Part shown: positions 15,085 through 41,626 of the stretch, piece after piece
Layout of the letters: every line of letters starts with the position of its first letter
Numbering within the stretch: position 1 is the stretch's first letter
Assembly (NCBI GenBank): GCA_948468595.1
Contig: CAOKIU010000004.1
Coordinates: forward strand, 1,988-65,987
DNA from: an uncultured Christensenella sp.
GTDB taxonomy: Bacteria > Bacillota > Clostridia > Christensenellales > UBA1750
Reading direction: 5' to 3'
Length of the DNA: 64,000 nucleotides
Notes under the pieces: model-generated
What the model saw: the letters and a program-made list of their open reading frames with translations, nothing else
What the model was told of the DNA's origin: nothing
Database searches by the model: none
Made by a program: the position numbers and the translations under genes

Positions 15085-15087
15085 CCG

Positions 15088-18123: not shown

Positions 18124-18222
18124 GGAAGCGGAGAAACCGTCCGTTCCTGGCAAGGCGCAGGTCTTGAAAAGGGAGGACGAACCATGTATGCTAAGAATAA
18201 CAAGACGCTTGGAGGGAACAAA

Positions 18223-20412
18223 ATGGCGATTACCGTTTTAAAGGACCCCATGATCTTCAAGATCGACACGGGGAACGCGAGCTATGTCATGGCGGTGATG
18301 GGACAGGGACACCTGATCCACCTCTATTACGGCGCGGCAATAGACGGGGCGCGGGTGGAGTACCTGGCGGCCGAACGGGGCAGGGCCTCCTTCTGGGCCA
18401 TCCCGGCTGGGGATGAGGACAGCTTTTCCACCGATGTCATGCCCATGGAGTACGCCGGCCAGGGAACGGCCGACCTGCGCCCCGCGGCCGTCGCCACGGT
18501 GGACGCGGACGGCGACAACGTGACGGACCTTCGGTACTTTGGCTATGAGATCCTGGAAGGCAAGCCCGACAACCCCGGCCTGCCTCATACCTATTTAAAC
18601 CAGGGTGACGGGGCCCAGACCCTCAAAATCACGCTGCGGGACGCGGTCAAGGACCTCTATGTGGACCTGTATTACACGGCGTTTGACTTTTCCGGCGCCA
18701 TCGCGCGTTGGACGGTAGTGCGCAACGCGGGCGCGCAGGCGGTGGACCTCACCCGCGTGATGAGCGCCTCCCTACAGTTCCCCGGCAAGGATTATGATTT
18801 GATTCACCTGCACGGCGCGTGGGCGCGGGAATTCCACGTCGAGCGCACGCCCATCGCGCACACCACGCAGGCGGTTTCCTCCTTCCGCGGCTCCTCCTCG
18901 CATTTGCACAATCCCTTTGCCGTTATCGCGGCCAAGGACGCGGATGAGGATGCGGGAGAGGTTTACGGCGTCAGCCTGATCTACTCCTCAAACTTCCTGA
19001 TCGAAACCGATGTCGACGCCTTTGACGGTCTGCGCCTCAACGCGGGCATCAACGACCGCGCCTTTTGCTGGCGCTTGGAGCCGGGCGCGTCCTTTGCCAC
19101 GCCGGAAGCGGTGCTGGTCTTTTCGGATCAGGGCCTGGGCGAGATGTCCCGCGCCTACCACAAGCTCTACCAGCGCAACCTGGCGCGCGGCAAGTACCGC
19201 GACCAACCCCGGCCCGTGCTGCTCAACTCCTGGGAGGGCGTGTACTTCGACTTCAACGCCGAAAAGATCCTGCGCATGGCCAAGAGCGCGGCGCAGACGG
19301 GCATAGAGCTGTTTGTGCTGGACGACGGCTGGTTTGGCAAGCGGGACAACGACCTGTGCGCGCTGGGGGACTGGGTGGTCAACGAAAAAAAGCTGGGCTG
19401 CACGCTGCATGATTTGGTGGAGGGCGTCAAGGCCACGGGCATGGACTTTGGCCTGTGGTTTGAGCCGGAGATGATCTCGCCGGACAGCGACTTGTACCGC
19501 GCGCATCCCACTTGGTGCCTGCACCAGAAAAAGCGCGCCCCTTCCCTGGGCCGCCATCAGCTCATTCTCGATTTGACGCGCAAAGACGTGCAGGATTACG
19601 TGGTCGAGGCGGTGAGCCGTGTGCTCTCCAGCGCCGACATCCGCTACGTCAAATGGGACATGAACCGCAACATGGCGGAGGTTGGCTCCGCCTGCCTGCC
19701 CCCTGAGCGGATCGGAGAGGTTTACCACCGCTACATCCTGGGCGTGTACAGCGTCATGGAGCGCGTCACCTCCGCTTTCCCGAACGTGCTGTTTGAGTCC
19801 TGCTCCGGCGGCGGCGGCCGCTTTGACGCCGGCATTCTCTACTACATGCCGCAAAATTGGACCTCTGACGACAGCGACGCCATCGAACGGCTGAACATCC
19901 AATATGGATGCTCCATGGTCTACCCGCCCTCCGCCATGACCTGCCATGTTTCCGCTGTGCCCAACCACCAGGTCGCCCGCGTCACGCCCCTGAACACGCG
20001 CGGCAACGTCGCCATGCAGGGCAGCTTTGGATATGAGCTGGACATGACCAAGCTCACCCCGGAGGAGAAAGAAGAGGTCGCCGCCCAGGTCGAGGAATAC
20101 AAGAGATACCGCGATTTGGTCATCACCGGATCGCAGTACCGCCTCATTTCGCCTGTGAATAGCAACGAATGCGCGTTTATGACCGTCTCGGCGGACAGAT
20201 CCACCGCCATCCTCACCTACGTCAAAAAGCTCAACGATCCCAATCCGCCCGTCACCCGCGTGCGCCTGAAGGGCTTGGACCCGGACGCGCAGTATCGCGG
20301 CGTGGCGGATGGCAAGGTCTACAGCGGCCGCACGCTGATGAACGCCGGCCTGAACATGCCCGCCATGCGGGCGGACTTTGATTCCGTGCGCATGGTGTTT
20401 GAGCGCGTTTAG
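18223..20412 (+). CDS. Alpha-galactosidase, glycoside hydrolase family 36
   Basis: ORF trimmed by 13 codons to the ATG at 18223 (GGAGGG upstream). Motifs LNSWEGVYFDFN, FVLDDGWFGKRDND, GLWFEPEMISPDS, YVKWDMNR (nucleophile Asp region), ESCSGGGGRFD, QNWTSDDSDAIERL. Confidence 0.9.
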   Translation: MAITVLKDPMIFKIDTGNASYVMAVMGQGHLIHLYYGAAIDGARVEYLAAERGRASFWAIPAGDEDSFSTDVMPMEYAGQGTADLRPAAVATVDADGDNVTDLRYFGYEILEGKPDNPGLPHTYLNQGDGAQTLKITLRDAVKDLYVDLYYTAFDFSGAIARWTVVRNAGAQAVDLTRVMSASLQFPGKDYDLIHLHGAWAREFHVERTPIAHTTQAVSSFRGSSSHLHNPFAVIAAKDADEDAGEVYGVSLIYSSNFLIETDVDAFDGLRLNAGINDRAFCWRLEPGASFATPEAVLVFSDQGLGEMSRAYHKLYQRNLARGKYRDQPRPVLLNSWEGVYFDFNAEKILRMAKSAAQTGIELFVLDDGWFGKRDNDLCALGDWVVNEKKLGCTLHDLVEGVKATGMDFGLWFEPEMISPDSDLYRAHPTWCLHQKKRAPSLGRHQLILDLTRKDVQDYVVEAVSRVLSSADIRYVKWDMNRNMAEVGSACLPPERIGEVYHRYILGVYSVMERVTSAFPNVLFESCSGGGGRFDAGILYYMPQNWTSDDSDAIERLNIQYGCSMVYPPSAMTCHVSAVPNHQVARVTPLNTRGNVAMQGSFGYELDMTKLTPEEKEEVAAQVEEYKRYRDLVITGSQYRLISPVNSNECAFMTVSADRSTAILTYVKKLNDPNPPVTRVRLKGLDPDAQYRGVADGKVYSGRTLMNAGLNMPAMRADFDSVRMVFERV

Positions 20413-20436
20413 CGCCCCGCAAAAGGAGGCTTTGAC

Positions 20437-21156
20437 ATGCCCAACCTGCAACAGCTCATCGATTCCCACCGCCGCGCGGTGTTCTTTGGCGGCGCGGGCG
20501 TTTCCACGGAGAGCGGAATCCCCGACTTTCGCAGCGTGGACGGGCTATACCGCCAGGCCTACGCCTATCCGCCGGAAACCATCCTCAGCCATAGCTTTTT
20601 TGAGCGCAACCCCGAGGAATTCTACCGGTTTTACCGCGAAAAGATGCTCTTATTGGACGTCCGCCCCAACGCGGCGCACGACAAGCTGGCGCGCTTGGAG
20701 GCGGCGGGCCGGCTCAGCGCGGTTGTGACGCAGAACATCGACGGCCTGCATCAAATGGCGGGCAGCCGGACAGTGTGGGAGCTGCACGGCTCCATTCACC
20801 GCAACCACTGCCTGACCTGCGGCAGGACCTACGACGCGCGCTTTATGCTCGAGAGCCGCGGCGTGCCGCGCTGCGCCTGCGGGGGCGCCGTGCGGCCGGA
20901 CGTGGTGCTCTACGAAGAGGGCTTGGACGACGCGGTTTTGGAGGGCGCGACAGCGGCCATCGCCCAGGCGGACCTGCTCATCATCGGCGGCACATCGCTG
21001 GCCGTCTACCCGGCGGCGGGGCTGCTCCAATTCTTTCGGGGGGATGCGGTGGTGCAGATCAACCGCGACCCAACCCCTTACGATGGCCGCGCGACGCTCT
21101 GCCTGCATGAGGGCATCGGCAAGGTGCTGGGCGACATCCAGGTCAACCCCCTTTAA
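20437..21156 (+). CDS. cobB: NAD-dependent protein deacylase, Sir2 family
   Basis: GAGVSTESGIPDFRS, TQNIDGLH, Zn ribbon CLTCG..CACGG, GTSLAVYPAA. Confidence 0.9.
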   Translation: MPNLQQLIDSHRRAVFFGGAGVSTESGIPDFRSVDGLYRQAYAYPPETILSHSFFERNPEEFYRFYREKMLLLDVRPNAAHDKLARLEAAGRLSAVVTQNIDGLHQMAGSRTVWELHGSIHRNHCLTCGRTYDARFMLESRGVPRCACGGAVRPDVVLYEEGLDDAVLEGATAAIAQADLLIIGGTSLAVYPAAGLLQFFRGDAVVQINRDPTPYDGRATLCLHEGIGKVLGDIQVNPL

Positions 21157-21268
21157 GCGCAGGGGGAATCCGCGAAACGGAGAACAACGCCGGCATACCT
21201 TCCGCGCATAACGCTGGCGGTAAAGGGGAGCGCGGATTGCAGCAAATCGGAATTTGGGAGGCGCGCAC

Positions 21269-21604
21269 ATGACGATCAACGAATACCAAAGCCTGGCGAT
21301 GCGGACGCTCAATCCCGCGTTGCAGAAGAGGGATGTTTTGATCAACAGCGTGATGGGCCTTTGCGGTGAATCCGGCGAGGCCATCGACCTTGTGAAGAAA
21401 TGGCTTGCCCAGGGGCATGCCTTGGATAAAGCGCACCTTGCCAAAGAGCTTGGCGACATCGCCTGGTATTTGGCCGAGGCGGCTACCGCGCTGGATCTGC
21501 CGCTGGAAGAGATTTTACAGGGGAATATCGATAAGCTGAAAAATCGGTATCCGGAGGGCTTCGCGTCGGAGAAATCCGTCCTTCGCTTGGAGGGCGACCT
21601 CTGA
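21269..21604 (+). CDS. MazG-like all-alpha nucleoside triphosphate pyrophosphohydrolase domain protein
   Basis: ORF trimmed by 5 codons to the ATG at 21269 (GGGAGG upstream). MTINEYQSLAMRT...GLCGESGEAIDLVKKW...ELGDIAWYLAEAA...NIDKLKNRYPEGF matches the small MazG-domain family. Confidence 0.8.
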   Translation: MTINEYQSLAMRTLNPALQKRDVLINSVMGLCGESGEAIDLVKKWLAQGHALDKAHLAKELGDIAWYLAEAATALDLPLEEILQGNIDKLKNRYPEGFASEKSVLRLEGDL

Positions 21605-21680
21605 AAGGGGCGCTGGCAAGGATGCTGGAAAGAGCGCGGCCGCGGCTTAGAACAAGGCGCATGGAAAGGGGAGCAAGAGA

Positions 21681-23402
21681 ATGGTTTTGGAGGAACTGGG
21701 AAAGAGAATCCTGTTTTTTGACGGAGCGATGGGGACGCAGCTTCTCGCCGCGGGCCTGGCGCAGGGGGAGCGGCCGGAGATGTGGAACCTCACCCACGAG
21801 GAAGCGGTCCGGGATATTCACCTGCGCTATCTGCGCGCCGGCGCGGACCTTGTGACGAGCAATACCTTTGGCATCAACGCGCTGCGGTTTGCGCAGGACC
21901 AGGTGGAGCAGCTGACGGCGCGCGCGGTGCGCATCGCCCGGGATGCCTGCCGCTTGACCGGGCGCGGGGCCGTGGCCCTGGATATGGGCCCCACGGGCCG
22001 CATGCTGGAACCGTATGGTGATCTTGGCTTTGAGCGGGCGGTGGAGCTGTATGCGCAGGTAGCCAGGGCGGGGGAGTCCGCCGGCGCGGACTGCGTGCTG
22101 ATTGAAACCATGGCCGACGCCTACGAATTAAAGGCGGCGGTGTTGGGCGCCAAGGAGGGGTGCGGCCTGCCCATCCTGGCTACCGTCACGGTGGATGAGG
22201 CGGGCAGGCTGCTCACCGGCGCGGACCTGCCCACGGTTGCGGCGCTGCTGGAGGGGCTGGGCGTGCGCGCCTTGGGCCTGAACTGCGGCCTCGGCCCCCG
22301 GCAAATGGAGGGCTTGCTGGCGCAGCTGCGGCAGGTCTGCTCGCTGCCCATCATCGTCCAGCCCAACGCCGGCCTGCCGCGCCAGGAAGGGGAGCGCGTG
22401 GTTTACGACGTGGATGCCGAGGGCTTTGCGCGCAGCCTGGAGCGCATCTGCGAAGGGGGCGCGTGGATCGTGGGCGGATGCTGCGGCACGACGCCGGAGC
22501 ACATCCAAAGGGCCGTTGCGGCCTGCCGCGCCGTGGCCCCCCGTCCCCTGCCGGAGCGCAGGCGGACCGTGATCACCTCCGGACGCCGCGCGGTTGCGCT
22601 GGGGGAGCGGACGTGCGTCGTGGGCGAGCGCATCAACCCGACGGGAAAGCCCGCGCTGGAGCAGGCGCTGCGCGCGCATGACATGGATGAGCTGCTGGAC
22701 GAGGCGGACGCGCAGGCAGAAAGCGGCGCGGATGTGCTGGATGTCAACGTGGGCCTCTCTCAAGTGGATGAGGCGGCGCTGCTCGGCGAGGCGGTGCAGG
22801 CCATTCAGGCCGTGACAAGCCTGCCGCTGCAAATCGACACCGCATCTCCGGCCGCGATGGAGCGCGCGATGCGCCTGTACAACGGCAAGCCCATGGTCAA
22901 CTCCGTCACCTGCAGGCAAGAGGATATGGACGCCATTTTTCCGCTGGTGAAGAAATACGGCGGCGTGGTGATAGGGCTGACGATGGATGAGGAGGGCATC
23001 CCCAAGACGGCGGAGGGCCGCGTGCGCATCGCGGAAAAGATTCTGCGCCGCGCCGAGGAATACGGCATTGGCCGGGAGGATGTCGTCATGGACGCGCTGA
23101 CCTTGGCCATTTCCGCCGGGGCGGACGCGCGCGTCACGCTGGAAGCTGCGCGCCGCATCAAGGAAGAGCTGGGGGTGCGCACGATTCTGGGCATTTCCAA
23201 CGTCTCCTTTGGCCTGCCGGGGCGGGAACAGCTCAACGCCGCCTTTCTCTCCATGGCCGTGGCCTGCGGGTTGGACGCGGCGATTGTCAACCCCCTGTCC
23301 GAACCGGTGATGCGCGCCCTTTGCGCGGCGCAAGCGCTGGTGGGGGCCGATCCGGATTGCGCGTCGTACATCGCCAAAACCGCCGGAAAGGGCGCGCGCT
23401 GA
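21681..23402 (+). CDS. Homocysteine S-methyltransferase domain fused to pterin-binding domain (MetH-like, no cobalamin-binding domain)
   Basis: Hcy-binding barrel with Zn-ligand cysteines (LGLNCGLGP, VGGCCGTTPEHI), then pterin-binding barrel (GADVLDVNVG, LPLQIDT, MVNSVT, GISNVSFGLPGRE). The protein ends about 40 aa after the barrel. Confidence 0.85.
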   Translation: MVLEELGKRILFFDGAMGTQLLAAGLAQGERPEMWNLTHEEAVRDIHLRYLRAGADLVTSNTFGINALRFAQDQVEQLTARAVRIARDACRLTGRGAVALDMGPTGRMLEPYGDLGFERAVELYAQVARAGESAGADCVLIETMADAYELKAAVLGAKEGCGLPILATVTVDEAGRLLTGADLPTVAALLEGLGVRALGLNCGLGPRQMEGLLAQLRQVCSLPIIVQPNAGLPRQEGERVVYDVDAEGFARSLERICEGGAWIVGGCCGTTPEHIQRAVAACRAVAPRPLPERRRTVITSGRRAVALGERTCVVGERINPTGKPALEQALRAHDMDELLDEADAQAESGADVLDVNVGLSQVDEAALLGEAVQAIQAVTSLPLQIDTASPAAMERAMRLYNGKPMVNSVTCRQEDMDAIFPLVKKYGGVVIGLTMDEEGIPKTAEGRVRIAEKILRRAEEYGIGREDVVMDALTLAISAGADARVTLEAARRIKEELGVRTILGISNVSFGLPGREQLNAAFLSMAVACGLDAAIVNPLSEPVMRALCAAQALVGADPDCASYIAKTAGKGAR

Positions 23403-26917: not shown

Positions 26918-26957
26918 TTGACAGTCACTTAACAAAATGATACGCTTTTTGTACTAT
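26918..26957 (+). promoter_or_regulatory. Promoter region of the seven-gene envelope operon (two alternative sigma-A registers)
   Basis: Register 1: TTGACA (26918-23), 17 nt, TACGCT (26941-46). Register 2: TTAACA (26929-34), 17 nt, TACTAT (26952-57). Either register puts the track's ATG at 26937 inside the promoter. Confidence 0.5.
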
Positions 26958-27053
26958 GGGGTCCCATCGGGAGCGCGGTTTTACGTGTTGGGCCGCGGGA
27001 AGTCGACGATGGACCTTTGGCAGGGGCAGAAATCGGAAAGGGCGGTAGGGTGT

Positions 27054-28034
27054 ATGCGCGTGCGCAAGAGGCTTTTTTGCGGGAATCAAACCCGCCCAAG
27101 GGCTTTGGCGAAATCCGGCTGGCTGTATGCGCTTACGGCGGTGCTGTGCGCAGCGCTGCTGTTTGCAACGCCGAGACTTTTCGCCCAGCGCACCCAGCCC
27201 CTTGCGCCCTCAAGCGACGCGGGACTGTTCTCCTGGAGCGCGGAGGAGGTCAATAAGACCGATGGAAAGCTCTTCTCCCTGATGAAACAGGAAAAACTGA
27301 ATGTTTTGTACCAAAGTTTTTCCGACAAGAACAGCCGGCAGGAGCAGATGTCCATCTTTGTGGAGACGGCGATGGAGGAGGGCATAAAGGTCTATCACCT
27401 GACCGGGGACCCCTCCTGGGGAACGGACCCAAAGGGAGAGAGGCTCTGCCAGGCCGTGGAGGAGGCGAACGCCTATAACCGCCGGATCAAGCGAAAGTTC
27501 CTGGAGCGGCGGGAGAAGGACGGCCAAAGGTGGAAAGAAATTCCGCAGCTTGCGGGGATTGTCTTTGATGTGGAGCCCTACATCCTGAAGGAGTGGGATA
27601 AAGATCCGGAAAAGGTTATGAACAGCTTTGTCTCCGGGATGAAAGCCGCATACGCTCTGGCGCAGGACTATGGATTGGAAGTCATCGTCTGCGTGCCCTG
27701 GCACTATGATCAAAACGGGCAGCAGGGAGGCTTGGAGGAGCTGATCAAGAGCGGCTGCGACAGCATCGCGGTGATGAACTATTATCGCGGTTCGGAAATC
27801 AAAAACATCGCCACGGAAGTGGAATTGGTGAAGAAATACTGCAAGGGGCTCATCACCATCTATGAGCTGCAAGAGGCGGACGGCCGAGGCGTGAGGGAAA
27901 TCAACACCTACGCAGGCTGCGGGCTTGACGCCGTGAAAAAGAACTACGATGGCGTCAGGGAGGCCTATCCGGAGCAAAGGATCTCCCTGGCCTATCACGA
28001 TTACCGGGCCTTGAAGGGAATGTTGGAAAGGTGA
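27054..28034 (+). CDS. Membrane-anchored extracytoplasmic TIM-barrel-like protein, putative glycoside hydrolase-like (DxE motif)
   Basis: Start uncertain (ATG at 27009 or 27054, both in frame with ORF 26937..28034). Basic head plus one TM (WLYALTAVLCAALLFATPRLF). The body alternates hydrophobic strands and helices and carries LAGIVFDVEPY, which resembles the GH18-type DxxDxDxE strand. The stop overlaps the next gene's GTG. Confidence 0.6.
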   Translation: MRVRKRLFCGNQTRPRALAKSGWLYALTAVLCAALLFATPRLFAQRTQPLAPSSDAGLFSWSAEEVNKTDGKLFSLMKQEKLNVLYQSFSDKNSRQEQMSIFVETAMEEGIKVYHLTGDPSWGTDPKGERLCQAVEEANAYNRRIKRKFLERREKDGQRWKEIPQLAGIVFDVEPYILKEWDKDPEKVMNSFVSGMKAAYALAQDYGLEVIVCVPWHYDQNGQQGGLEELIKSGCDSIAVMNYYRGSEIKNIATEVELVKKYCKGLITIYELQEADGRGVREINTYAGCGLDAVKKNYDGVREAYPEQRISLAYHDYRALKGMLER

Positions 28035-28726
28035 ATGAAGTTCTTCGGCAGGAGAGGAAGTTTCTCATCGGCCTGCCTGACTACTATCAGTTCAGCGGCA
28101 ATCTGGCCAAGGTCATGATGGAGGACCCGCACAACCGCGGCGACGGATACCCCATCCGCTCCCTCTACTTTGACTCGCTGGAGGACCGGGACTTTCAGGA
28201 GAAGCTGGACGGCGTATCGATTCGCCGCAAGATCCGCCTAAGGTGCTACGGCCCGGGCAGCGACTTTGCCCTGCTGGAGGTCAAGCAAAAAGAGGCGAAC
28301 CTGCAAAAAAAGCGCTCCCTGCGCCTTCCGCGCGCGGCGGCCGCCCGCCTGACCCAGGGGGATTACAGCCCGCTGCTGACCTGCCCGGAGCCCCTGGCCC
28401 AGGAATGCTACGCCCTGATGAACATCCATGCCTACCGGCCCCGCTCCGTGGTGGAATACCGCCGGAGGGCTTTCATTGCCAAGGAGAACAAGATCCGCGT
28501 CACCTTTGATCACCACATCGTGGGGACGGAGAGCCATTACGATATTTTTGACAGTGCGCTCAACCAATACCCCCTTCAGGACCCGTCGCTGGTGGTGCTG
28601 GAGGTCAAGTACAACGGCTTTCTGCTGAGCTATATCAAGGATATGCTCCGCGATTGTGCGACCGGCGAAATATCCGTCAGCAAATACGGCCTGAGCCGGT
28701 CGGTCAGCAAGCACATTGATTTTTAA
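28031..28726 (+). CDS. VTC-domain (CYTH/triphosphate-tunnel, polyphosphate-polymerase-like) protein
   Basis: GTG at 28031 overlaps the upstream stop (GTGA). Tunnel-type alternating charged strands: QERKFLI, IRSLYFDS, IRRKIRLRCY, LLEVKQKE, VEYRRRAFI, IRVTFDHHI, VVLEVKYNG. No TM segment. Confidence 0.75.
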   Translation: MNEVLRQERKFLIGLPDYYQFSGNLAKVMMEDPHNRGDGYPIRSLYFDSLEDRDFQEKLDGVSIRRKIRLRCYGPGSDFALLEVKQKEANLQKKRSLRLPRAAAARLTQGDYSPLLTCPEPLAQECYALMNIHAYRPRSVVEYRRRAFIAKENKIRVTFDHHIVGTESHYDIFDSALNQYPLQDPSLVVLEVKYNGFLLSYIKDMLRDCATGEISVSKYGLSRSVSKHIDF

Positions 28727-28744
28727 ATCTAGGAGACATAGACC

Positions 28745-29422
28745 ATGAGAGAGTATCTAGCCCAGATCATCGCGGAAAGCGGGAGCCTCACTGCGCAGGA
28801 GGTCGTGCTGCATATCGCCGCCTCGGCGGTGCTGAGCATCGCCATTTACGTTTCCTACTGGTATACCCATGCGGGCACGGCCTACAGCAAAAAATTCAAT
28901 GTGTCGCTCATGACCCTCACCGTCCTTACCGCCACCGTTATGACGGTCATCGGCAACAACATCGCCCTGTCCCTTGGCATGGTGGGCGCGCTGTCCATCG
29001 TGCGCTTCCGCACGGCCATCAAGGACTCCAGGGACACGGCCTACATCTTCTGGACCATTATTGTGGGCATCTGCTGCGGCGTGGGGGACTACCTGGTGGC
29101 CGGCGTGGGCACGGCCGTGGTGTTTATCATCCTGATGGTCCTGGGCCGGGTGCGGAATGAAAACCGCATTTTGCTCATCATTCGGGGCGCGAAGGAGAGA
29201 AGCGCGGACATGGAGCGCCTGGTCTTCTCCTATTTTAACAAGCGCGCCCTCTTGCGCGTGCGCAACACCACGGCGGAGCATGTGGAGCTGATCTACGAGA
29301 TGCCCCGGCGGATCTGGCAGTTAAACTACCGCAAGGATGTGGATATTTCCGACGCGCTGTACGCCCTGGGCGGCACGGAGTATGTAAACACCGTGACCCA
29401 GAGCGACGAGATTAGCGGGTGA
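28745..29422 (+). CDS. DUF4956-like polytopic membrane protein
   Basis: TAGGAGA RBS. About five hydrophobic segments (VVLHIAASAVLSIAIYVSYWY, VSLMTLTVLTATVMTVIG, LGMVGALSIVRF, AYIFWTIIVGICCGVG, LVAGVGTAVVFIILMVLG) plus a ~90-aa soluble tail. Family assignment is from memory of the VTC/DUF4956/CotH neighbourhood. Confidence 0.65.
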   Translation: MREYLAQIIAESGSLTAQEVVLHIAASAVLSIAIYVSYWYTHAGTAYSKKFNVSLMTLTVLTATVMTVIGNNIALSLGMVGALSIVRFRTAIKDSRDTAYIFWTIIVGICCGVGDYLVAGVGTAVVFIILMVLGRVRNENRILLIIRGAKERSADMERLVFSYFNKRALLRVRNTTAEHVELIYEMPRRIWQLNYRKDVDISDALYALGGTEYVNTVTQSDEISG

Positions 29423-30963
29423 CGGCCGTGCGGCGCGGCATGGTGGTCATGGCGGGCGTGGCGGCGTGCATCCTGCTGCTGTCCCTCCTGTTTCAGGACA
29501 TGGGAGACCGAACGGGCGTGATGCGGTATCAGCAGCACCGCGCGCAGCCATCGGAAGAGGAGCTGGGCCGCTGCGCGGTTTGCGGCGGAGCGGGGCAGCT
29601 GTGCACCCATCTGCCCATCATCCGCATTGAGACGGGCGGCAAGACCATTCCGGGACGCCCCTATGAGGGAGAGAACGGCGATACGGCGGGCTATTACGCA
29701 GGGGAAGACGGGGAGGAGGAAATCTTAGTCCGGTTTTCCACGGTGTCGGAGGAGGGCGTTTGGCACCACGCGGACGATGCCGCAACCGAGGAAGGCGAGG
29801 CCCTTTTCCGCTACCGGGGCAACAGCTCCCGCTGGTTTGCCAAGGGCAACTTCCGCCTCAGAACCGTGGAGGATGGAAACCCGGAGCAAAGCCGGAAAAT
29901 GGGTCTGCTGGGGATGAAGAGCGGCAAGGAATGGTCCCTGCACGGACCCTTTTTGGACAAGACGCTGATGCGGAACTACCTTTGCATGAACCTCTCGGCG
30001 GAGGTGACGGGCGAATGGACGCCGGACGTGCGCTTTTGCGAGGTGCTGCTGGACGGGGAGTATCAGGGCGTCTACCTGCTGACGGAGACCATCGACGTGG
30101 ATGAAAACCGGCTGGCCCTGCACGAGTATGCGCCGGGGGACCCGGTGATGAGCTACCTGGTCCGCATTGAACCCCGCACCAACCCGGAAAAGGTGTTGGA
30201 CAATTTCACCCTCTACTCCTACCGGATGGAGCCGGGGCGGAATTTGGAGCTCTTGTACCCGGGGACCATCAACCAAACCCAGCAAGTGCGCTCCTACGTT
30301 CAGGCCGACTTCAACGAGGTGGAGCGGATGCTCTATTCCGTGGAGATGCTGGACGGCTCCGACGCCTGGCAACAGGTATTGGACATGGATTCCTTTGTGG
30401 ATTACTATATCCTGATGGAGTTTTTCGGAATCAACGATACCTTTGGCGCCTCGACCTACTTTTACCGGGATGCCCGGGGCAAGCTGTGCATCGGTCCGGT
30501 ATGGGATTACAACAATGCCCTTGACAACAACTTTTTGCGGCCTAGCTCCAGCCGCGAATTCCTGATCTCCCAGAGAGGGTGGTATGCAAAGCTGATGCAG
30601 GACGAGGATTTTGTGGAGCGGGTGATCACCCGCGACCGGGATTTGCGCAAGGGCGTTCTTTCCGAGGCGCGCCGTGTTGCCGATGAAAAGGAGGTGCAGG
30701 CGTGGCTGGGCAGCGCCGTGGACCGCAACTTCTCCGTCTGGGGCTATTCGTTTAACCCGGATATGCTCACGAGCCACGAGCGCCATCGGCCTTATCCGGA
30801 AAGCGGCGAAACCCTGCGGGATGTGAACCCCTCCAGCTATGAGGAGGCGGTGGAATGGATGATGGAGTACATGATCGACCGGGGGCAGTGGATGGATGAC
30901 CACATCGAATCCCTGCGGCAATACAGCCACCCCTCCAGGGTTGCCAATCAGACGCTGGGGTAG
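29419..30963 (+). CDS. CotH-family atypical kinase, N-terminally membrane-anchored
   Basis: GTG overlaps the DUF4956 stop (GTGA). Signal anchor RRGMVVMAGVAACILLLSLLF. CotH blocks FRYRGNSSRWFAKGNFRL, WSLHGPFLDKTLMRNYL, CEVLLDGEYQGVYLLTE, FYRDARGKLCIGPVWDYNNALDN. Confidence 0.8.
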   Translation: MTAVRRGMVVMAGVAACILLLSLLFQDMGDRTGVMRYQQHRAQPSEEELGRCAVCGGAGQLCTHLPIIRIETGGKTIPGRPYEGENGDTAGYYAGEDGEEEILVRFSTVSEEGVWHHADDAATEEGEALFRYRGNSSRWFAKGNFRLRTVEDGNPEQSRKMGLLGMKSGKEWSLHGPFLDKTLMRNYLCMNLSAEVTGEWTPDVRFCEVLLDGEYQGVYLLTETIDVDENRLALHEYAPGDPVMSYLVRIEPRTNPEKVLDNFTLYSYRMEPGRNLELLYPGTINQTQQVRSYVQADFNEVERMLYSVEMLDGSDAWQQVLDMDSFVDYYILMEFFGINDTFGASTYFYRDARGKLCIGPVWDYNNALDNNFLRPSSSREFLISQRGWYAKLMQDEDFVERVITRDRDLRKGVLSEARRVADEKEVQAWLGSAVDRNFSVWGYSFNPDMLTSHERHRPYPESGETLRDVNPSSYEEAVEWMMEYMIDRGQWMDDHIESLRQYSHPSRVANQTLG

Positions 30964-30977
30964 GAAGGAAAACGGGA

Positions 30978-33122
30978 ATGAGACGATTTGTAACAGCGGC
31001 GGTGCTGCTGTTGGCCATTGCCCTTGGCGCGTATTACGCCGTCTTCTACGGCGGGCTCTACCTGCGCCTTGGAAAGGGGGAGGCGGTGGACCTGCCCTTC
31101 CGCGCGGAGGGAACGGAGCTTCAGCGTTGGAACGGACAGGACTATGCCGCGCTGACCCTGCGCGGCGTGGATGTATCCGCCAGCATGCCGGGGCACTACG
31201 CCACCGCCTATGACGCCGGGGAGGAGGATTACCTCCGTTGGTTTGAGGCCATCGGCGAAATGGGGGCCAACGCCGTTCGGGCGACCAATGTGATGAACGA
31301 CGATTTTTACAACGCCCTTTATGCCTATAACACCACCCATGATCAGCCCTTGTACCTGCTTCAGGGCACCAACATCAGCGACGATGTGGGCGACGGCGCC
31401 AAGGACGCTTATGTCGATGGCTTTCTCGGCGCGCTGATTGAGGACGGCAAAAACCTGGTGGATATCGTCCACGGGCGGAAAAACCTTCCCGCCGTCGGGA
31501 TTCGGAGCGGCGGCGTGTACCGAAAGGACGTCTCCCCCTGGGTGGTGGGGTTTCTTGTGGGGACGGAGTGGTATCCCGATACCATCTCCTATACGGACCA
31601 CAGCACCATCCGATCCGGCGCTTTTGAGGGGACGTACTTCCAAACGACGGCCGATGCCACGCCCTTTGAGGCGGCGATGGCGCAAGTCATGGAGGCGATC
31701 ACCGCCTATGAGACGGATAAATACGGCGCGCAGCGGCCCATCGGGTTTCTCTGCGATCCTTCCTGCGACTTTCTCGAGTATGAGGAGGTCTACGCCCGCC
31801 AGCTGAGCAAGCACGCGCAGGCCGACCCGGAGCATGTCACGCCCACGCCCTCGATGGCGGCGGGATGCTTTGCCGCCTACCGGCTCTTCCATTTTTGCGA
31901 TACGTTTGCGCAGCGCCTTTCCAGCGCGCAGCAACAGGCCATTGCGCCGCTCCTTGAGGGACTGCCCACCGAACAGCCTTACGGCGGTTATCTTAAGCTG
32001 TTGACCCGATACCATACCATGCCGGTGCTGGCCGCAGGCTACGGCGTTTCCTCCAGCCGCGGCGCCGTGGTGCAGGATAAGGAGCCTCTGACGGAGAAGC
32101 AGCAGGGGGAGCGCTTGGTCGAAATCAGCCGGACGCTGGAGGACGACGGCTGGGCGGGGGGCTTCATCTCCACCTGGCAGGACGAATGGGAGCGCAGGAG
32201 CTGGAACACGGCCTTTGCCACAGTGCCAACGGAGAACTATCTTTGGCACGATTTGCAGACGGAAAGCCAGGGCTATGGCCTGATGGCTTTCGCCCCGGGG
32301 GCGCAGGCGACCTGCACCCTGGATGGGAACCCCGATGAGTGGACGGCCAAGGACCTCCTCCTGGAGCGGGACGGGCTGCGCCTGTCGGCCCGCTACGACG
32401 CCGAGGGCGTATACCTGCTGGTGGAAGGGATGGACCAGCAGGAGGCGCTTTACCTGCCCCTGGATGTGTCGCCGGAGGTGGGGAGCCGCTCCTCGGATCG
32501 CCCTGCGCTGACATTTGCGCGGGAGGCGGATCTTCTCCTCTGCATTGACGGGGCGGAAGACACCCGGCTGCTGGTGCAAGAGCGCTTCGACCCCCTGCGG
32601 GAGCGGTTTCTCAACGAGACAGAGGGCGTGGACCCCTTTCTGTACTTCCCAAAGAAGGAGAGCAAATCCTTTGTGTCCCTGGGCATGGCGATGCAAAACA
32701 CCCTGCTGGTGGAGGAGCTCAACCCCAAGACCCGCGCCCTTCAGCGCCTGAAGGTGTGGGAGACGGGAAAGCTGGTCCACGGAAACGGGGACAGCCAATC
32801 GGCGGAGTATAACTCTCTGGCCGACTTCTGCTTTGGAGAGGGGTGCGTGGAGATTCGCCTCCCTTGGCTGCTGCTGAACGTGGGCGACCCTTCCTCCATG
32901 ATGGTCCATCGGGACTATTACGCGCATTATGGCGTGGAGTTTCAGTCGGTTGAGAGGATTTGGATTGGGATGGCCCGTCAGGGCGACCAGGGCGAGATTC
33001 CCATGGAGGCGCTGCGGCTCAGGGGCTGGAAGCGCGTAGAGTACCGGGAGCGGCTGAAGGAGAGCTACTACGTCGTGCAGGCGGCTTGGAAAGGGGGCGG
33101 CCAGAATGCAGCTTCCGGTTAA
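30978..33122 (+). CDS. Membrane-anchored 714-aa protein with clan GH-A-like TIM-barrel region and C-terminal beta-rich domains, function unknown
   Basis: GGAAGGAAAA RBS. Signal anchor AAVLLLAIALGAYYAVFYGGLYL. LRGVDVSASMPGHY..YLRWFEAIGEMGANAVRATNV..VVGFLVGTEWYP..VLAAGYGVSSSRG..GGFISTWQDEW. Confidence 0.65.
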   Translation: MRRFVTAAVLLLAIALGAYYAVFYGGLYLRLGKGEAVDLPFRAEGTELQRWNGQDYAALTLRGVDVSASMPGHYATAYDAGEEDYLRWFEAIGEMGANAVRATNVMNDDFYNALYAYNTTHDQPLYLLQGTNISDDVGDGAKDAYVDGFLGALIEDGKNLVDIVHGRKNLPAVGIRSGGVYRKDVSPWVVGFLVGTEWYPDTISYTDHSTIRSGAFEGTYFQTTADATPFEAAMAQVMEAITAYETDKYGAQRPIGFLCDPSCDFLEYEEVYARQLSKHAQADPEHVTPTPSMAAGCFAAYRLFHFCDTFAQRLSSAQQQAIAPLLEGLPTEQPYGGYLKLLTRYHTMPVLAAGYGVSSSRGAVVQDKEPLTEKQQGERLVEISRTLEDDGWAGGFISTWQDEWERRSWNTAFATVPTENYLWHDLQTESQGYGLMAFAPGAQATCTLDGNPDEWTAKDLLLERDGLRLSARYDAEGVYLLVEGMDQQEALYLPLDVSPEVGSRSSDRPALTFAREADLLLCIDGAEDTRLLVQERFDPLRERFLNETEGVDPFLYFPKKESKSFVSLGMAMQNTLLVEELNPKTRALQRLKVWETGKLVHGNGDSQSAEYNSLADFCFGEGCVEIRLPWLLLNVGDPSSMMVHRDYYAHYGVEFQSVERIWIGMARQGDQGEIPMEALRLRGWKRVEYRERLKESYYVVQAAWKGGGQNAASG

Positions 33123-34215
33123 GGGCGTAATTTACTTTTACATGTTCATTTGCGTCGCCCTGTTGGTGTTTAACCTGCTCTATATCTGCCGCGCCGATCA
33201 CGTCAAGCGGCGGCAGCAGCGCAAAAGCCAGCGCTGGGAGGCGTATCTGGACGGCGTGAAGAAGGGCGGAAAGCCCGCATGGAGCCGGAGAAAGCTGTTT
33301 CGCATGCTGCGCAACAGTCAGGAGCTCATGGCCCTCTATGCGGCCGCAGAGGGCCGGGACCAGGCGGAGATCGAGGCCGTCTTTCGGCAAAATCGCTCGC
33401 TGTTTGTGGAACTGGCGCAGGATTACGGGAAGAAGGCCCCCATGGAGCGAGCCTTTTTCGCCTATGTGATCGCCGCCTTTTATCCGGCCGTAGGGGACAA
33501 GCAGGACCCGCTGCTGGAGATCCTTCTCCGCTACCTGGATGACTCCACAGTATACTGCCGGGAAAATGTGCTCCACGCCCTGTATACTTTGGGAAACATG
33601 CAGGCGGTGGAGCACGCCTTCGTCCTGATGAGCCAGCGGGAGTGGTATCACGACCCCAGGCTCCTGGCCGATGGGCTGAACCGGTTTCAGGGGGAGCGGG
33701 AGAAGCTGGCCGGCAGGCTTTGGAGCCGCAGAAGGGATCTGATCGAGTGTTACCAATCGGGCGCCATTCGCTTTGCCGACGCGCTGCCCGGGGACGATTT
33801 TGTAGAGGACTTCCTGGAGGCGCTCAAGACCGAGACGCTTCCCACGGAGACGCAGTTTGCGCTGGTGCGGTATTTTCGCCGCCATGCCGACCCGCGCGCA
33901 AAACCGGAGCTGCTTAGGCTGCTAAAGGAGCAGGTGGAGGGAAGGCGGGAGCTGGCCATCGCCGCGGCCGCGGCCCTCTCCTCTTATCCGGACGGGGAAA
34001 CCCGGCAGGCCCTCAAAGAGGCGCTCCGCAGCCGCAATTGGTATGTGCGGCAGAACGCGGCCCGCTCCTTAAAGGCGATGGGCGCCACCTGGGAGGAAAT
34101 TCAGGCCGAAATAAAGGGAGACCGATACGCGACGGAGATGCTGGAATACGTCTATGGCGTCCAGCCTGCCGGGGCGCAAGGCGGAAAGGAAAGCGAGGTG
34201 CATAAGGCGGTATGA
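33106..34215 (+). CDS. Membrane-anchored HEAT/PBS-lyase-repeat protein
   Basis: The ATG overlaps the upstream gene by 17 nt. One N-terminal TM (VIYFYMFICVALLVFNLLYI) followed by basic residues. Helical repeats ending ...LAIAAAAALSSYPDGETRQALKEALRSRNWYVRQNAARSLKAMG. Confidence 0.7.
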   Translation: MQLPVKGVIYFYMFICVALLVFNLLYICRADHVKRRQQRKSQRWEAYLDGVKKGGKPAWSRRKLFRMLRNSQELMALYAAAEGRDQAEIEAVFRQNRSLFVELAQDYGKKAPMERAFFAYVIAAFYPAVGDKQDPLLEILLRYLDDSTVYCRENVLHALYTLGNMQAVEHAFVLMSQREWYHDPRLLADGLNRFQGEREKLAGRLWSRRRDLIECYQSGAIRFADALPGDDFVEDFLEALKTETLPTETQFALVRYFRRHADPRAKPELLRLLKEQVEGRRELAIAAAAALSSYPDGETRQALKEALRSRNWYVRQNAARSLKAMGATWEEIQAEIKGDRYATEMLEYVYGVQPAGAQGGKESEVHKAV

Positions 34216-35636
34216 ACGAGGTGATGATTCAAATTCTGCGTGTGGTGGAAGTGTTTTTTCTGCTGTATCTTCTGCTTTACGCCTCCTATCTGTTCCTGTC
34301 CGTGGCCATGGGCGCCTGGCGGCTTTACCGCCTGGACCGGATGCGCGCCATCAAAAACGAACTCAAGCATGAGTTCTACTTTCCCGTCTCCATCCTGGTG
34401 CCTGCCCACAACGAAGAGGTCACCATTTTGGACAGTGTGCTCTCCTTGCTGAAACTGGACTACCGGCTCTATGAGATTATCGTCGTGGACGATGGGTCCG
34501 GGGACGACACAAGCAAGGTGCTCATCGATCACTTCCACATGAAGGAGGTTCGCCGTCCCATCCGGAGGAGCATCCCCTGCAAACACATCGTGGCCATTTA
34601 CGAGGCGCCGGATACGCGCGTTCGGCTGACCCTCCTGCGGAAGGAAAACGGGGGCAAGGGCGATGCGCTCAACGCCGGCATCAACGCCTCCCAGTATCCC
34701 TATTTTCTCTGCATTGACGCGGATTCCATGCTTCAGTGGGATTCGCTGGAGCGCATCGCCCAGCCGGTGATGGAGGATGACGACGTGGTGGCGGTGGGAG
34801 GGTTGATCCGCATCGCGCAGTGCATAACGGTGGATTGGAAGGAGGGCGGCGATCTCAAGCAGGGGCTGAGTTATCACCTGCCTTGGAACTTCCTGACCAG
34901 CATGCAGGTCATGGAGTACGACCGGTCCTTCCTGGCCTCCCGCATACTGATGGACAACTTCAACGGCAACCTAATCATCTCCGGCGCTTTTGGCCTGTTT
35001 AAAAAGAGCGTGGTCATTGCCGCCGGCGGCTACGCCACCGACGTGTTGGGCGAGGACATGGAACTGGTGGTCAAGCTGCACGCCTACTGCCGCAACAACA
35101 TGGAGAAGTATTCCATCCGCTACGAACCCAATGCGATTTGTTGGAGCCAGGTCCCCTCGACGATGACGGACCTCTTCAAGCAGCGCCGCCGGTGGCATAT
35201 CGGTTTGTTTCAGTGCATCACGCGGTATGGCTTTATGTTCATGAAATCGCGCTTCGGAATGGTGGGCACCGCATCCTACCTCTACTATCTGCTCTATGAG
35301 CTGTATTCGCCCATCATTGAATTGGTGGGGTTGATTGCGACGATCGCGGCGGCGCTGGTGGGCCTGCTCAATTTCACCTTCATGGTCCAATTCTACCTGC
35401 TCTTTGCGCTCTACAGCTCCATTTTGACCATCACCGCGTTCTTTCAGCGGATCTACACGCAAAATGTCCGTTTGAGTTCGCGGGATGTGTTCCGCGCCTG
35501 CGTCATGTGCCTGATCGAGAACGTCTTCTTCCGATTTGTCTTTGACTTTATCCGCCTTAGCGCGTTTTTCAGCTACCGGAAAAACAAGGGAACTTGGGGA
35601 AAAATCAAGCGCGTGCAGCAAAGCCAGGCGCAATAG
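34212..35636 (+). CDS. Processive family-2 glycosyltransferase (synthase type, PgaC/IcaA/BcsA-like core with flanking TM helices)
   Basis: ATGA overlap with the HEAT gene. N-terminal TMs, then ILVPAHNEE, IIVVDDGSGDDT, GGKGDALNAG, LCIDADSM (DxD), ISGAFGLFKK, QRRRWHIG (QxxRW), then several C-terminal TMs. Confidence 0.85.
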   Translation: MNEVMIQILRVVEVFFLLYLLLYASYLFLSVAMGAWRLYRLDRMRAIKNELKHEFYFPVSILVPAHNEEVTILDSVLSLLKLDYRLYEIIVVDDGSGDDTSKVLIDHFHMKEVRRPIRRSIPCKHIVAIYEAPDTRVRLTLLRKENGGKGDALNAGINASQYPYFLCIDADSMLQWDSLERIAQPVMEDDDVVAVGGLIRIAQCITVDWKEGGDLKQGLSYHLPWNFLTSMQVMEYDRSFLASRILMDNFNGNLIISGAFGLFKKSVVIAAGGYATDVLGEDMELVVKLHAYCRNNMEKYSIRYEPNAICWSQVPSTMTDLFKQRRRWHIGLFQCITRYGFMFMKSRFGMVGTASYLYYLLYELYSPIIELVGLIATIAAALVGLLNFTFMVQFYLLFALYSSILTITAFFQRIYTQNVRLSSRDVFRACVMCLIENVFFRFVFDFIRLSAFFSYRKNKGTWGKIKRVQQSQAQ

Positions 35637-35648
35637 GGGCGGCCGTAT

Positions 35649-35684
35649 CCCGCGTTTTGCGCGGGCTTGCGCCTTTCCTTTTTG
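35649..35684 (+). terminator. Weak candidate terminator after the GT2 gene
   Basis: CCCGCG-TTTTG-CGCGGG (6-bp stem), then CTTGCGCCTTTCCTTTTTGG. Confidence 0.4.
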
Positions 35685-35707
35685 GCACTGTGCCTGCAAT
35701 CGATGCC

Positions 35708-35746
35708 CGGCAGCCGGTGGGGATATGTCTTCCCCGCCGGCTGCCG
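35708..35746 (+). other. Very stable 16-bp hairpin (possible terminator or RNA-stability element)
   Basis: CGGCAGCCGGTGGGGA-TATGTCT-TCCCCGCCGGCTGCCG (one G-U pair), followed by CGTTGATTTG. Confidence 0.5.
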
Positions 35747-40663: not shown

Positions 40664-41626
40664 ATGACGGAACAAGAATTGTTTGCGCGCCTCAATCTCT
40701 TTAAGAAGCTGGCCATTCCCCGGCCGTCGCTGTTTGCCCTGGAGAAAAAGGGCGAGAGGAGCTTTGCGCGCGCGACGCCGGATCACGGGCTGATGGTCTA
40801 TCCCGACGCGGAGAGCTGCCGCGTGGGCCTCTACGCGCAGGAGTGCATGCGCGCGGGCGACGGCTGGGACGACGCGCCGCTCCTTATGTGCGGCGCGCTT
40901 GTGCAGATGTGCGACCGGGAGGACCTGGACCGGGACGATTACGCGCTGATCAAGTCGCTGGGGCTGCGCTATCGCGGCCGCGGGCAATGGCCGCGCCTGC
41001 GCCGCCTGCGCCCTGGCCGCGTTCCTTGGTACTTGGAGGAAGAGGACAGGGAATTGCTCGCCGCCGCCCTTGACGCCGCCTGCGCGCTGGCCGAAGGGGG
41101 AAGGCTGTGCCTTCCCGAGGATGAGCTCGCCGTTGTTGCGGAGGACGGCCTTCGGTGGGAGGCGATGGAGATTGCGCCTGCACCGCCCCTCTACCCGGTC
41201 GCGGACATTCCGGACGAGATGATGCTGGCCCGCCTCAAAAAGCAGCCCAAGCGGAGCGCCGCTTGGGAGGTGACGGTGCAGGCCTTTCCCTATCCCGCCG
41301 ACAGCGGGGACGGCGGCGCGCCGGTGTGCCCGCAGATGCTGCTGATGGTCGATGAGGAGACGGATCAGGTGCTGGACATCTGTGTAACCAACGATTATCA
41401 GGGCGAGGGATACCGCCGCCTGTCCGATGCGTTTCTCACCCAAATTCAGAAGCGCGGCCGCCCCATGCGCCTGCGCTGCGCCAATATCCGTGCGCTGAGC
41501 CTCATGGAGGACATCTGCCGCAAAACGGGCGTGCCCGCCGAGCTGTGCGCGAACCTGCCGCAGCTCAAGGAGGCGTTTGAGTCCCTGCTCCGCTTAACCG
41601 GCGAGGCGGATGGCGGCGAGGAATAA
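40664..41626 (+). CDS. Conserved-looking hypothetical protein (320 aa), no family assigned with confidence
   Basis: Starts 9 nt after the cdd stop. Soluble and acidic. Has normal protein-like composition, unlike the antisense artefacts. Confidence 0.65.
   Translation: MTEQELFARLNLFKKLAIPRPSLFALEKKGERSFARATPDHGLMVYPDAESCRVGLYAQECMRAGDGWDDAPLLMCGALVQMCDREDLDRDDYALIKSLGLRYRGRGQWPRLRRLRPGRVPWYLEEEDRELLAAALDAACALAEGGRLCLPEDELAVVAEDGLRWEAMEIAPAPPLYPVADIPDEMMLARLKKQPKRSAAWEVTVQAFPYPADSGDGGAPVCPQMLLMVDEETDQVLDICVTNDYQGEGYRRLSDAFLTQIQKRGRPMRLRCANIRALSLMEDICRKTGVPAELCANLPQLKEAFESLLRLTGEADGGEE

Follow-up and report, generated by a model that had tools for sequence, protein, structure and literature searches.

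A seven-gene envelope operon from an uncultured Christensenella sp. joins a predicted processive GT2 synthase to the VTC/DUF4956/CotH trio of Pel loci

Described relatives and conservation of the operon

NELoc-2, the necrotic-enteritis-associated locus 2 of the low-GC pathogen Clostridium perfringens, is an island of 11.2 kb (PMC2879425). The locus encodes, according to Table 4 in Lepp et al. 2010, a VTC protein (232 aa), a membrane protein mislabelled as tubulin/FtsZ (226 aa), a resolvase, a second VTC/membrane protein pair, a CotH protein (497 aa), a hypothetical protein (685 aa), a HEAT protein (377 aa) and a family-2 glycosyltransferase (GT2) labelled “chitin synthase” (466 aa) (PMC2879425). 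Papers after 2010 re-annotate NELoc-2 or report changes in its expression, and none assigns it a function. Part of the same gene set is known from Pel loci: in streptococci and clostridia, cotH, a polyphosphate (polyP) polymerase gene and genes for DUF4956 and DUF4832 proteins are contiguous with pelDEADAFG (Whitfield et al. 2020, PMC7112168). In Streptococcus intermedius, deletion of SIR_1592 (DUF4956-type) and SIR_1594 (CotH) lowers Pel and aggregation, and SIR_1591, which combines an anchored TIM barrel with DUF4832, actively hydrolyzes Pel; the authors of this 2025 paper report no case of the three-gene synteny away from Pel loci (PMC12345266). Here, we describe a related operon of seven genes in a 64,000-nucleotide stretch of DNA from an uncultured Christensenella sp. 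(contig CAOKIU010000004.1, positions 1,988 to 65,987 of the forward strand; hereafter, the window). Genes 2–4 encode VTC, DUF4956 and CotH proteins (the trio), and are followed by a glycosidase-like protein (gene 5, g5), a HEAT-repeat protein (gene 6) and a GT2 (gene 7), while gene 1 encodes a further TIM barrel (Table 1).

The window operon and NELoc-2 have the same gene order, the same domain labels and near protein sizes (232/226/497/685/377/466 aa in NELoc-2 versus 231/225/514/714/369/474 aa in the window). NELoc-2 differs in that its VTC/membrane protein pair is duplicated and split by the resolvase, and in that a sigma factor and a 348-aa protein stand upstream, in place of the TIM barrel of gene 1. 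The first-pass annotation of this DNA had not recognized the gene set as any characterized system. However, NELoc-2 matches it in order, sizes and labels (PMC2879425), and the trio has been published beside Pel (PMC7112168, PMC12345266). Thus, the locus type, as NELoc-2, and the trio, beside Pel, had already been noticed. What is new here is the loss of the g5 nucleophile in the window, the fusions of g5 to a transmembrane (TM) helix with HEAT repeats and to a CE4 domain, and a GGDEF-EAL gene after the GT2 in about half of the loci. By gene content, one member of the family is a locus linked to C. perfringens strains of avian necrotic enteritis. No entry named C. perfringens was present among the best 120 matches listed, including those of a search seeded with g5 from a low-GC Clostridium.

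The Pel accessory genes (SIR_1591–1594) are like the window in two respects. VTC, DUF4956/MgtC-like and secreted CotH proteins are encoded contiguously with a synthase-dependent exopolysaccharide (EPS) operon, and a membrane-anchored, glycosidase-like protein consisting of a TIM barrel and a β-domain is encoded alongside. The synthases, in contrast, are unrelated, with PelF (a GT4 enzyme), PelG, PelD/E and PelA in one case and the GT2/HEAT pair in the other. The TIM-barrel partners also differ, as that of Pel contains DUF4832 and is an active hydrolase, whereas the window g5 has neither a Pfam match nor a nucleophile. PelF, PelG, PelD/PelE and PelA have no match in the seven proteins or in ten flanking ones, and no such cluster is found among the conserved flanks of the 80 related loci described below. 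As judged from profile matches and gene order, the present operon family is a counter-example to the reported restriction, and the VTC/DUF4956/CotH synteny occurs beyond Pel loci. As the trio travels between two unrelated synthase systems (Pel and GT2/HEAT), the question raised by Pel, concerning an extracellular CotH protein beside a polyP polymerase, becomes general and testable, and the GT2/HEAT operon offers a second, simpler genetic context in which to test the role of the trio.

A survey of gene neighborhoods, which the first-pass annotation had proposed, finds the two halves of the operon adjacent well beyond one genome, in essentially all of the 80 loci, on a Planococcus plasmid and in a Clostridiaceae metagenome-assembled genome (MAG). 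Relatives of g5 were identified by a pattern scan with one genome per species, and 80 loci were fetched; gene order was read from matches of the seven window proteins to open reading frames (ORFs) called in all six frames of these loci. A g5 relative is present in at least 566 species genomes, and operons of this family are frequent in animal-gut Clostridia. The order VTC-DUF4956-CotH-g5-HEAT-GT2 is found on one strand in essentially every locus with enough flanking sequence, persists down to 34% g5 identity, and has median intergenic distances of −4 to +20 nt (67–79 loci). Most carriers belong to gut Oscillospiraceae, Lachnospiraceae and Christensenellaceae; the others are Defluviitaleaceae, Erysipelotrichaceae-type MAGs and a single Chloroflexota MAG. 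On the Planococcus maritimus plasmid, all seven genes are annotated, and the gene set in the Clostridiaceae MAG comes with independent gene calls and Pfam labels. Within the window itself, a sequence check reproduced exactly the seven same-strand ORFs of the first-pass annotation, together with their GTGA, ATGA and 17-nt overlaps and their 18- and 14-nt gaps. The sequence evidence supports a single, tightly coupled envelope operon around a putative processive QxxRW GT2. Chance adjacency of the seven genes was considered and rejected, because the same gene order is kept in ~80 loci from many families.

The trio is separable from the remainder. On the plasmid pRadio2 of Deinococcus radiophilus (L082, 7530–12564), g5-HEAT-GT2 is present without the trio, and g5 is fused to TPR repeats. 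In Paenibacillus cellulosilyticus (L083, 7475–16652), a plasmid-borne g5-HEAT-GT2 set, also without the trio, contains two tandem g5 paralogues and a weak gene-1-like ORF. Because this set occurs without the trio, and the trio adjoins Pel loci, we conclude from gene content that the core of the system is g5-HEAT-GT2 and that the trio is a portable accessory unit. The GT2-HEAT-g5 core is an undescribed partner set for a processive synthase.

The first-pass annotation had also not recognized the locus as Bcs, Pga/Ica or Pel, and tests of the defining features of these systems agree. Like the window GT2, PgaC/IcaA of the poly-N-acetylglucosamine (PNAG) system begins with a TM segment, continues with a cytoplasmic GT-A domain (D, DxD, ED and QxxRW motifs) and ends in a bundle of TM segments. 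PNAG loci also resemble the window in having a small-operon partner just upstream of or overlapping the GT2 and an extracytoplasmic barrel protein, which in some relatives of the window g5 is fused to CE4 (PgaB-like). The partner, however, is PgaD/IcaD in PNAG systems and a 369-aa HEAT protein here, and the PgaA porin belongs to PNAG only. Searches against Pfam and NCBIfam gave no PgaD-like or CE4 match in the seven proteins, and the only CE4 domain was one fused to a distant relative of g5. The match to BcsA is limited to the catalytic/QxxRW part, and neither PilZ nor BcsB has a match in the seven proteins. By these sequence features, the system falls outside Pga/Ica, Pel and Bcs.

The glycosyltransferase, its HEAT partner and gene 5

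Profile searches bore out the VTC, DUF4956, CotH, HEAT and GT2 assignments made in the first-pass annotation, and AlphaFold2 (AF2) models with Foldseek did the same for the TIM barrel of gene 1 and the clan-GH-A-like fold of g5. Gene 7 matches the GT2 models of Pfam (1e-24) and contains the motifs DDG, DAD, GED and QRRRW. Residues D94, D169/D171, E281/D282 and Q324/R325/R327/W328 are invariant in 24 orthologues, and the profile of gene 7 matches BcsA, chitin synthase and hyaluronan synthase across the QxxRW half. A hydropathy scan places one TM segment at the N-terminus and three at the C-terminus. Gene 7 thus has the features of the synthase-dependent EPS class, namely a processive GT2 with D, DxD, (T/G)ED and QxxRW motifs and a C-terminal TM channel. 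The synthase-dependent glycan pathway proposed at first pass is supported by these motifs, their invariance and the conservation of the operon, and a role of the locus in synthase-dependent EPS production is a well supported prediction.

Gene 6 matches HEAT_2 (4e-11, Pfam) and is predicted to consist of one N-terminal TM helix, followed by 6 Lys/Arg residues, and a cytoplasmic α-solenoid of PBS-lyase-type HEAT repeats; its family profile matches alphaRep/HEAT structures. The HEAT and GT2 genes have a median gap of −4 nt (79 loci) and co-occur even where the trio is absent, as in Deinococcus and Paenibacillus. On this pattern of co-occurrence, the HEAT protein is an obligate partner of the GT2. 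A literature search found no characterized synthase-dependent system that combines HEAT and GT2 proteins.

Gene 5 has no sequence match in Pfam, NCBIfam or the PDB. Its AF2 model (predicted local distance difference test, pLDDT, 83) consists of an N-terminal anchor, a (β/α)8 barrel and a C-terminal β-sandwich. Foldseek places the barrel nearest to glycoside hydrolase family GH157 (2e-10), followed by GH2, GH5 and GH72, all of clan GH-A. The family divides at the active site, with strand register taken from the secondary structure of the AF2 model and not from superposition. Half of the full-length orthologues (38/76), as well as the Deinococcus and Paenibacillus proteins, have ISE[YF]G, with the classical GH-A nucleophile, at the end of β7, and proteins of this type have the acid/base Glu on β4. 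The remaining 38, among them the window protein (AAGYG, Gly354), have Gly, Ser or Asp at the nucleophile position on β7. The window g5 retains the acid/base residue E197, which has decayed in 12 of the 38 nucleophile-less orthologues, within the clade of the window. Consequently, the window g5 has the fold of clan GH-A but not its active site, which is defined by Glu residues on both β4 and β7. As it is without the nucleophile Glu, the modeled protein is predicted to be a pseudo-glycosidase, and is probably a binding or scaffold subunit.

The g5 family is large, comprising 1,729 clusters at 50% identity in an exhaustive HMMER search, and has no Pfam model. All members of the g5 alignment were compared with Pfam at E ≤ 1 and gave nothing consistent for DUF4832, DUF4874 or GH families; therefore, the link between g5 and the Pel-associated DUF4832 protein is architectural only. 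Natural fusions indicate how the parts of the core sit across the membrane. Five representative clusters (P0359, P0365, P0399, P0405 and P0404; ~1040–1195 aa) are fusions of the type anchor-g5-TM-HEAT, in which g5 is of the active SE[VF]G type and a Lys/Arg-rich stretch follows the second TM segment. This arrangement fits a predicted topology with g5 outside and HEAT inside the membrane, and the fusion links genes 5 and 6 in Rosetta-stone fashion. In one further cluster (P0341), a g5 relative has a C-terminal CE4 polysaccharide deacetylase domain, which recalls PgaB and PelA and, by analogy, hints at an N-acetylated polymer. Three other g5 relatives (P0357, P0392 and P0400) have an N-terminal extension of ~370 aa with no Pfam match.

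Several genes recur next to the related loci. The absence of PilZ and GGDEF proteins noted in the first-pass annotation holds for the window and not for the family, as 29 of the 59 loci with enough flanking sequence have a GGDEF-EAL gene that starts, in the same orientation, within 700 nt downstream of the GT2. This neighbor points to a link with cyclic di-GMP in the family. In these linked proteins, GGDEF is degenerate (SDHGF) and EAL is intact (e.g., L048:15225–17060). Genes for Hpt proteins (14 loci) and hybrid histidine kinases (13 loci) also recur near related loci, though less often; none of these three kinds of neighbor is present in the window. A protein of ~173 aa with no Pfam match, coiled-coil-like by eye, is encoded downstream of the GT2 on the same strand in 13 loci (e.g., L053:4643–5161). 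On the Planococcus plasmid (L081, 14750–18061), a Qat anti-phage system (P-loop NTPase and QatC) is encoded ~2 kb downstream of the operon and is probably just plasmid cargo.

The VTC/DUF4956/CotH trio and a proposed mechanism

Gene 2 matches the VTC (triphosphate-tunnel) family PF09359 (2e-38, Pfam) and consists of the VTC domain alone, with neither a TM segment nor SPX. As a single sequence it matched no PDB chain, and the profile of its family matches the catalytic domain of yeast Vtc4 (3G3Q) at 1e-4. In the alignment to 3G3Q, R6/K10 and R69/R71 of gene 2 stand opposite basic residues of the Vtc4 chain, which we take to be R196/K200 and R264/R266. These four residues, along with E83, K85, R145, R156, E191 and K193, are invariant in 23 orthologues. 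Based on this conservation, gene 2 is a predicted polyP polymerase. The yeast VTC complex is like the window in that a VTC tunnel domain with conserved basic and acidic residues is paired with a multi-pass membrane protein; the genetic pairing in the window suggests that synthesis may be coupled to translocation. In yeast, however, an SPX domain and the Vtc transmembrane channel are fused to the catalytic domain, whereas in the window the catalytic domain is separate and soluble. A literature search found no demonstrated activity of a bacterial VTC protein.

Gene 3 matches DUF4956 (PF16316, 1.5e-14) and, under the Pfam cutoff, MgtC (1e-5). A hydropathy scan predicts 4–5 TM helices and a cytoplasmic C-terminal domain of ~90 aa; its counterpart in S. 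intermedius, SIR_1592, has been described as an MgtC TM region with an ACT domain (PMC12345266). Gene 4 matches CotH (PF08757, 2e-51) over profile positions 2–322 of 322, and has one N-terminal TM segment and a predicted outward-facing domain. Its N-lobe aligns to B. cereus CotH (5JD9), and K142, E223, D340 and D363 are invariant in 18 orthologues. The spacing of 23 between D340 and D363 equals that of D228/D251 of B. subtilis; from this equal spacing only, we infer that D340/D363 may be the corresponding catalytic pair. Bacillus CotH is thus like gene 4 in the full-length Pfam match, the N-lobe alignment and the Asp spacing, and unlike it in that gene 4 is membrane-anchored, predicted extracytoplasmic and part of an EPS operon. 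Characterized CotH enzymes are Ser/Thr protein kinases, and in Bacillus CotH is a spore-coat kinase (PMC7821199).

Together, these features make it probable, in our judgment, that the locus is a synthase-dependent EPS operon built of two portable modules and an optional enzyme, in which the trio may carry phosphoryl chemistry outward. The GT2 would build the chain from a sugar nucleotide on the inner side of the membrane and thread it outward. The polymer would probably be β-linked and contain N-acetylhexosamine; an N-acetylated substrate is hinted at because of the g5-CE4 fusion, the proximity of the GT2 to PgaC/IcaA, and the GH18-like motifs and Foldseek matches of gene 1 (see below). The HEAT protein and g5 may form a trans-membrane assembly with the GT2, in which the external, anchored g5 would receive or process the chain, with half of the g5 family acting as canonical GH-A hydrolases and the clade of the window most likely as binding or scaffold proteins. 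Gene 1 would be an external enzyme that probably cuts or modifies the glycan. The trio, in turn, would carry phosphoryl groups across the membrane: the cytoplasmic VTC tunnel enzyme would make polyP, the DUF4956 membrane protein would act as its partner, and the outward-facing CotH protein would phosphorylate the polymer or a surface protein, thereby promoting polymer production or retention. The extracellular step, whether phosphorylation or transfer of polyP, was also proposed at first pass and is something that we infer from domain content and predicted topology.

A more specific version of the outward phosphoryl chemistry, to which we assign a low likelihood, is that VTC, DUF4956 and CotH make up a trans-membrane phosphoryl-delivery machine. 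By analogy with the yeast VTC complex, polyP made inside would be conducted across the membrane by the DUF4956 protein, or its synthesis would be anchored there by this protein, and CotH would draw on polyP in place of ATP when phosphorylating or polyP-tagging the growing polysaccharide. PolyP is suggested as the exported donor or tag because the predicted outward kinase has no obvious ATP supply and because the polyP polymerase is encoded beside a multi-pass membrane protein. If true, the trio would contain a bacterial VTC polyP synthase/translocase and an extracellular polyP-dependent kinase, each the first of its kind, and would constitute a plug-in module serving unrelated synthases (Pel and GT2/HEAT).

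Several observations weigh against the reading of the locus as such a two-module EPS operon, or against its parts. The operon corresponds to a NELoc-2-type locus, a correspondence of published order, sizes and labels and not of sequence. The best named model for gene 7, TIGR03937 (PgaC_IcaA), scores 154 bits versus a curated cutoff of 422.3, and no deacetylase is encoded in the window. The gene 1 barrel is ambiguous by its sequence matches and could be glycosidase-like or isomerase/epimerase-like. DUF4956 is not homologous to the channel domain of yeast Vtc, so that polyP export is proposed by analogy only, and the C-lobe profile of gene 4 failed to align with 5JD9. The topology of all seven proteins comes from a simple hydropathy and charge scan, which is a crude prediction. 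Finally, neither a cyclic di-GMP gene nor a recognizable receptor was found in the seven proteins or the 64-kb window.

The trio could instead be a regulator, a reading that we regard as doubtful. CotH would then phosphorylate a protein, for example g5, some other protein of the cell surface or part of the synthase; phosphate or energy state would be sensed by polyP or by an ACT-like domain of the DUF4956 protein; and synthesis would be switched on where cyclic di-GMP input is absent. Protein phosphorylation was proposed as regulation of streptococcal Pel by the authors of that work (PMC7112168), a role that is consistent with the Ser/Thr protein kinase activity of characterized CotH enzymes (PMC7821199) and with knockouts of the DUF4956 and CotH genes that reduce Pel but do not abolish it (PMC12345266). 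The window and its nearest relatives are also without the GGDEF-EAL gene that is present in half of the other loci. However, the trio is present in loci with GGDEF-EAL genes as well, a kinase that faces outward has no evident way to reach ATP or the synthase domain in the cytoplasm, and the operon encodes no substrate-like Ser-rich protein.

We consider it very unlikely that the operon builds a spore-surface or sporulation-specific glycan, with CotH acting on coat proteins as in Bacillus and the GT2 making a spore polysaccharide. This reading draws on the spore-coat kinase role of Bacillus CotH (PMC7821199) and on carriers that are mostly Clostridia, many of them spore-forming. The CotH protein of gene 4, however, is N-terminally anchored and predicted to be extracytoplasmic, the promoter-like site upstream of the operon resembles a housekeeping sigma-70-type site, and the GGDEF-EAL neighbors point to biofilm-type control. 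Furthermore, the operon or the trio is also found in the non-spore-formers Planococcus, Deinococcus (core only), streptococci and bifidobacteria. More improbable still is the mere co-transcription of a polysaccharide synthase unit and a phosphate-storage/polyP unit with no chemical link, since, although the modules are separable in nature and the evidence tying polyP to the glycan is not direct, the trio sits between gene 1 and g5 with start/stop overlaps, keeps this position in ~68 loci at identities down to 34%, includes one predicted extracellular protein among its three, and has as its only other described home the Pel EPS locus, whose polymer is affected by its loss.

Gene 1, operon signals and surroundings

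The longest ORF of gene 1 begins upstream of its probable start. The ATG at 26937 falls within the promoter-like site, homologues of gene 1 are ~326–333 aa long, and a Shine-Dalgarno-like stretch (GGAAAGGG/GGTAGGG) is located 5′ of the ATG at 27054; for these reasons, 27054 is the most likely start. Gene 1 has no sequence match in Pfam, NCBIfam or the PDB. Its AF2 model (pLDDT 87) is an anchored (β/α)8 barrel with 8 strands, for which the nearest Foldseek matches are GH53, GH18, GH1 and GH10 glycosidases along with sugar epimerase barrels (TM-score ~0.45–0.49). Invariant residues include D172 and E174 on β4, M241/N242/Y243 on β6, E271 and H315. The D172-x-E174 and M241-N-Y243 patterns resemble what we take to be the DxE and MxYD motifs of GH18. 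When homologues of gene 1 were compared with Pfam at E ≤ 1, weak matches were obtained to AP_endonuc_2, a xylose-isomerase-like barrel (12/23), and to GH18 (2/23). The gene is found in 25 of the 80 loci, mostly just upstream of VTC and at times downstream of the GT2, and hhalign indicated no relationship between gene 1 and g5. A CE4 deacetylase was considered for gene 1 and rejected, given the eight-strand model and the lack of any CE4 protein among the top 50 Foldseek matches; what we take to be the CE4 motifs were likewise not spotted in its sequence.

The coordinates and junctions of the operon are collected in Table 1. Most starts have Shine-Dalgarno-like purine runs just 5′. The promoter region and the terminal hairpins reported at first pass are present as consensus matches alone, and promoter-like sites number 6, compared with 3.1 ± 1.9 in shuffled sequences. 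By the hydropathy and charge scan, gene 1, CotH and g5 are predicted to be outside, each on a single N-terminal anchor, and VTC and the HEAT domain to be inside.

Table 1. Features of the operon and its flanking signals (window coordinates).
Feature	Position	Strand	Description	Junction with next gene
Promoter-like region	26918–26957	+	TTGACA at 26918; TTAACA-N17-TACTAT at 26929–26957 (consensus scan, 9/12 matches)	
Gene 1	27054–28034	+	Anchored TIM barrel; longest ORF from 26937; optional operon member	GTGA overlap, 28031–28034
Gene 2	28031–28726	+	Soluble VTC-domain protein, 231 aa; PF09359	18-nt gap, 28727–28744
Gene 3	28745–29422	+	DUF4956 membrane protein, 225 aa; PF16316	GTGA overlap, 29419–29422
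Gene 4	29419–30963	+	Signal-anchored CotH-family atypical kinase (predicted), 514 aa; PF08757	14-nt gap, 30964–30977
Gene 5 (g5)	30978–33122	+	Signal-anchored clan-GH-A-like barrel and β-sandwich, 714 aa; AF2/Foldseek	17-nt overlap, 33106–33122
Gene 6	33106–34215	+	TM helix and HEAT repeats, 369 aa; HEAT_2	ATGA overlap, 34212–34215
Gene 7	34212–35636	+	Processive family-2 glycosyltransferase (GT2), 474 aa; Pfam GT2 models	
Two terminator-like hairpins	35659–35746	+	35659–35672, then CTTTCCTTTT; 35708–35746, 16-bp stem with 13 GC pairs	

The operon is flanked upstream by a divergent amidohydrolase gene and downstream by a UvrD-type helicase gene, neither of which is related to it, and its base composition is similar to that of the remaining window. 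Further upstream, and unrelated to the operon, genes for a GH36 α-galactosidase, a Sir2-family deacetylase and a homocysteine S-methyltransferase/pterin-binding (MetH-like) protein are located at 18184–23402. An SbcD/SbcC nuclease pair is encoded at 13972–18123, and the SbcC-like ORF coincides with the GC peak of the window (0.715 at 16001–18000). An ORF with DUF7309 and DUF6930 is present at 40664–41626.

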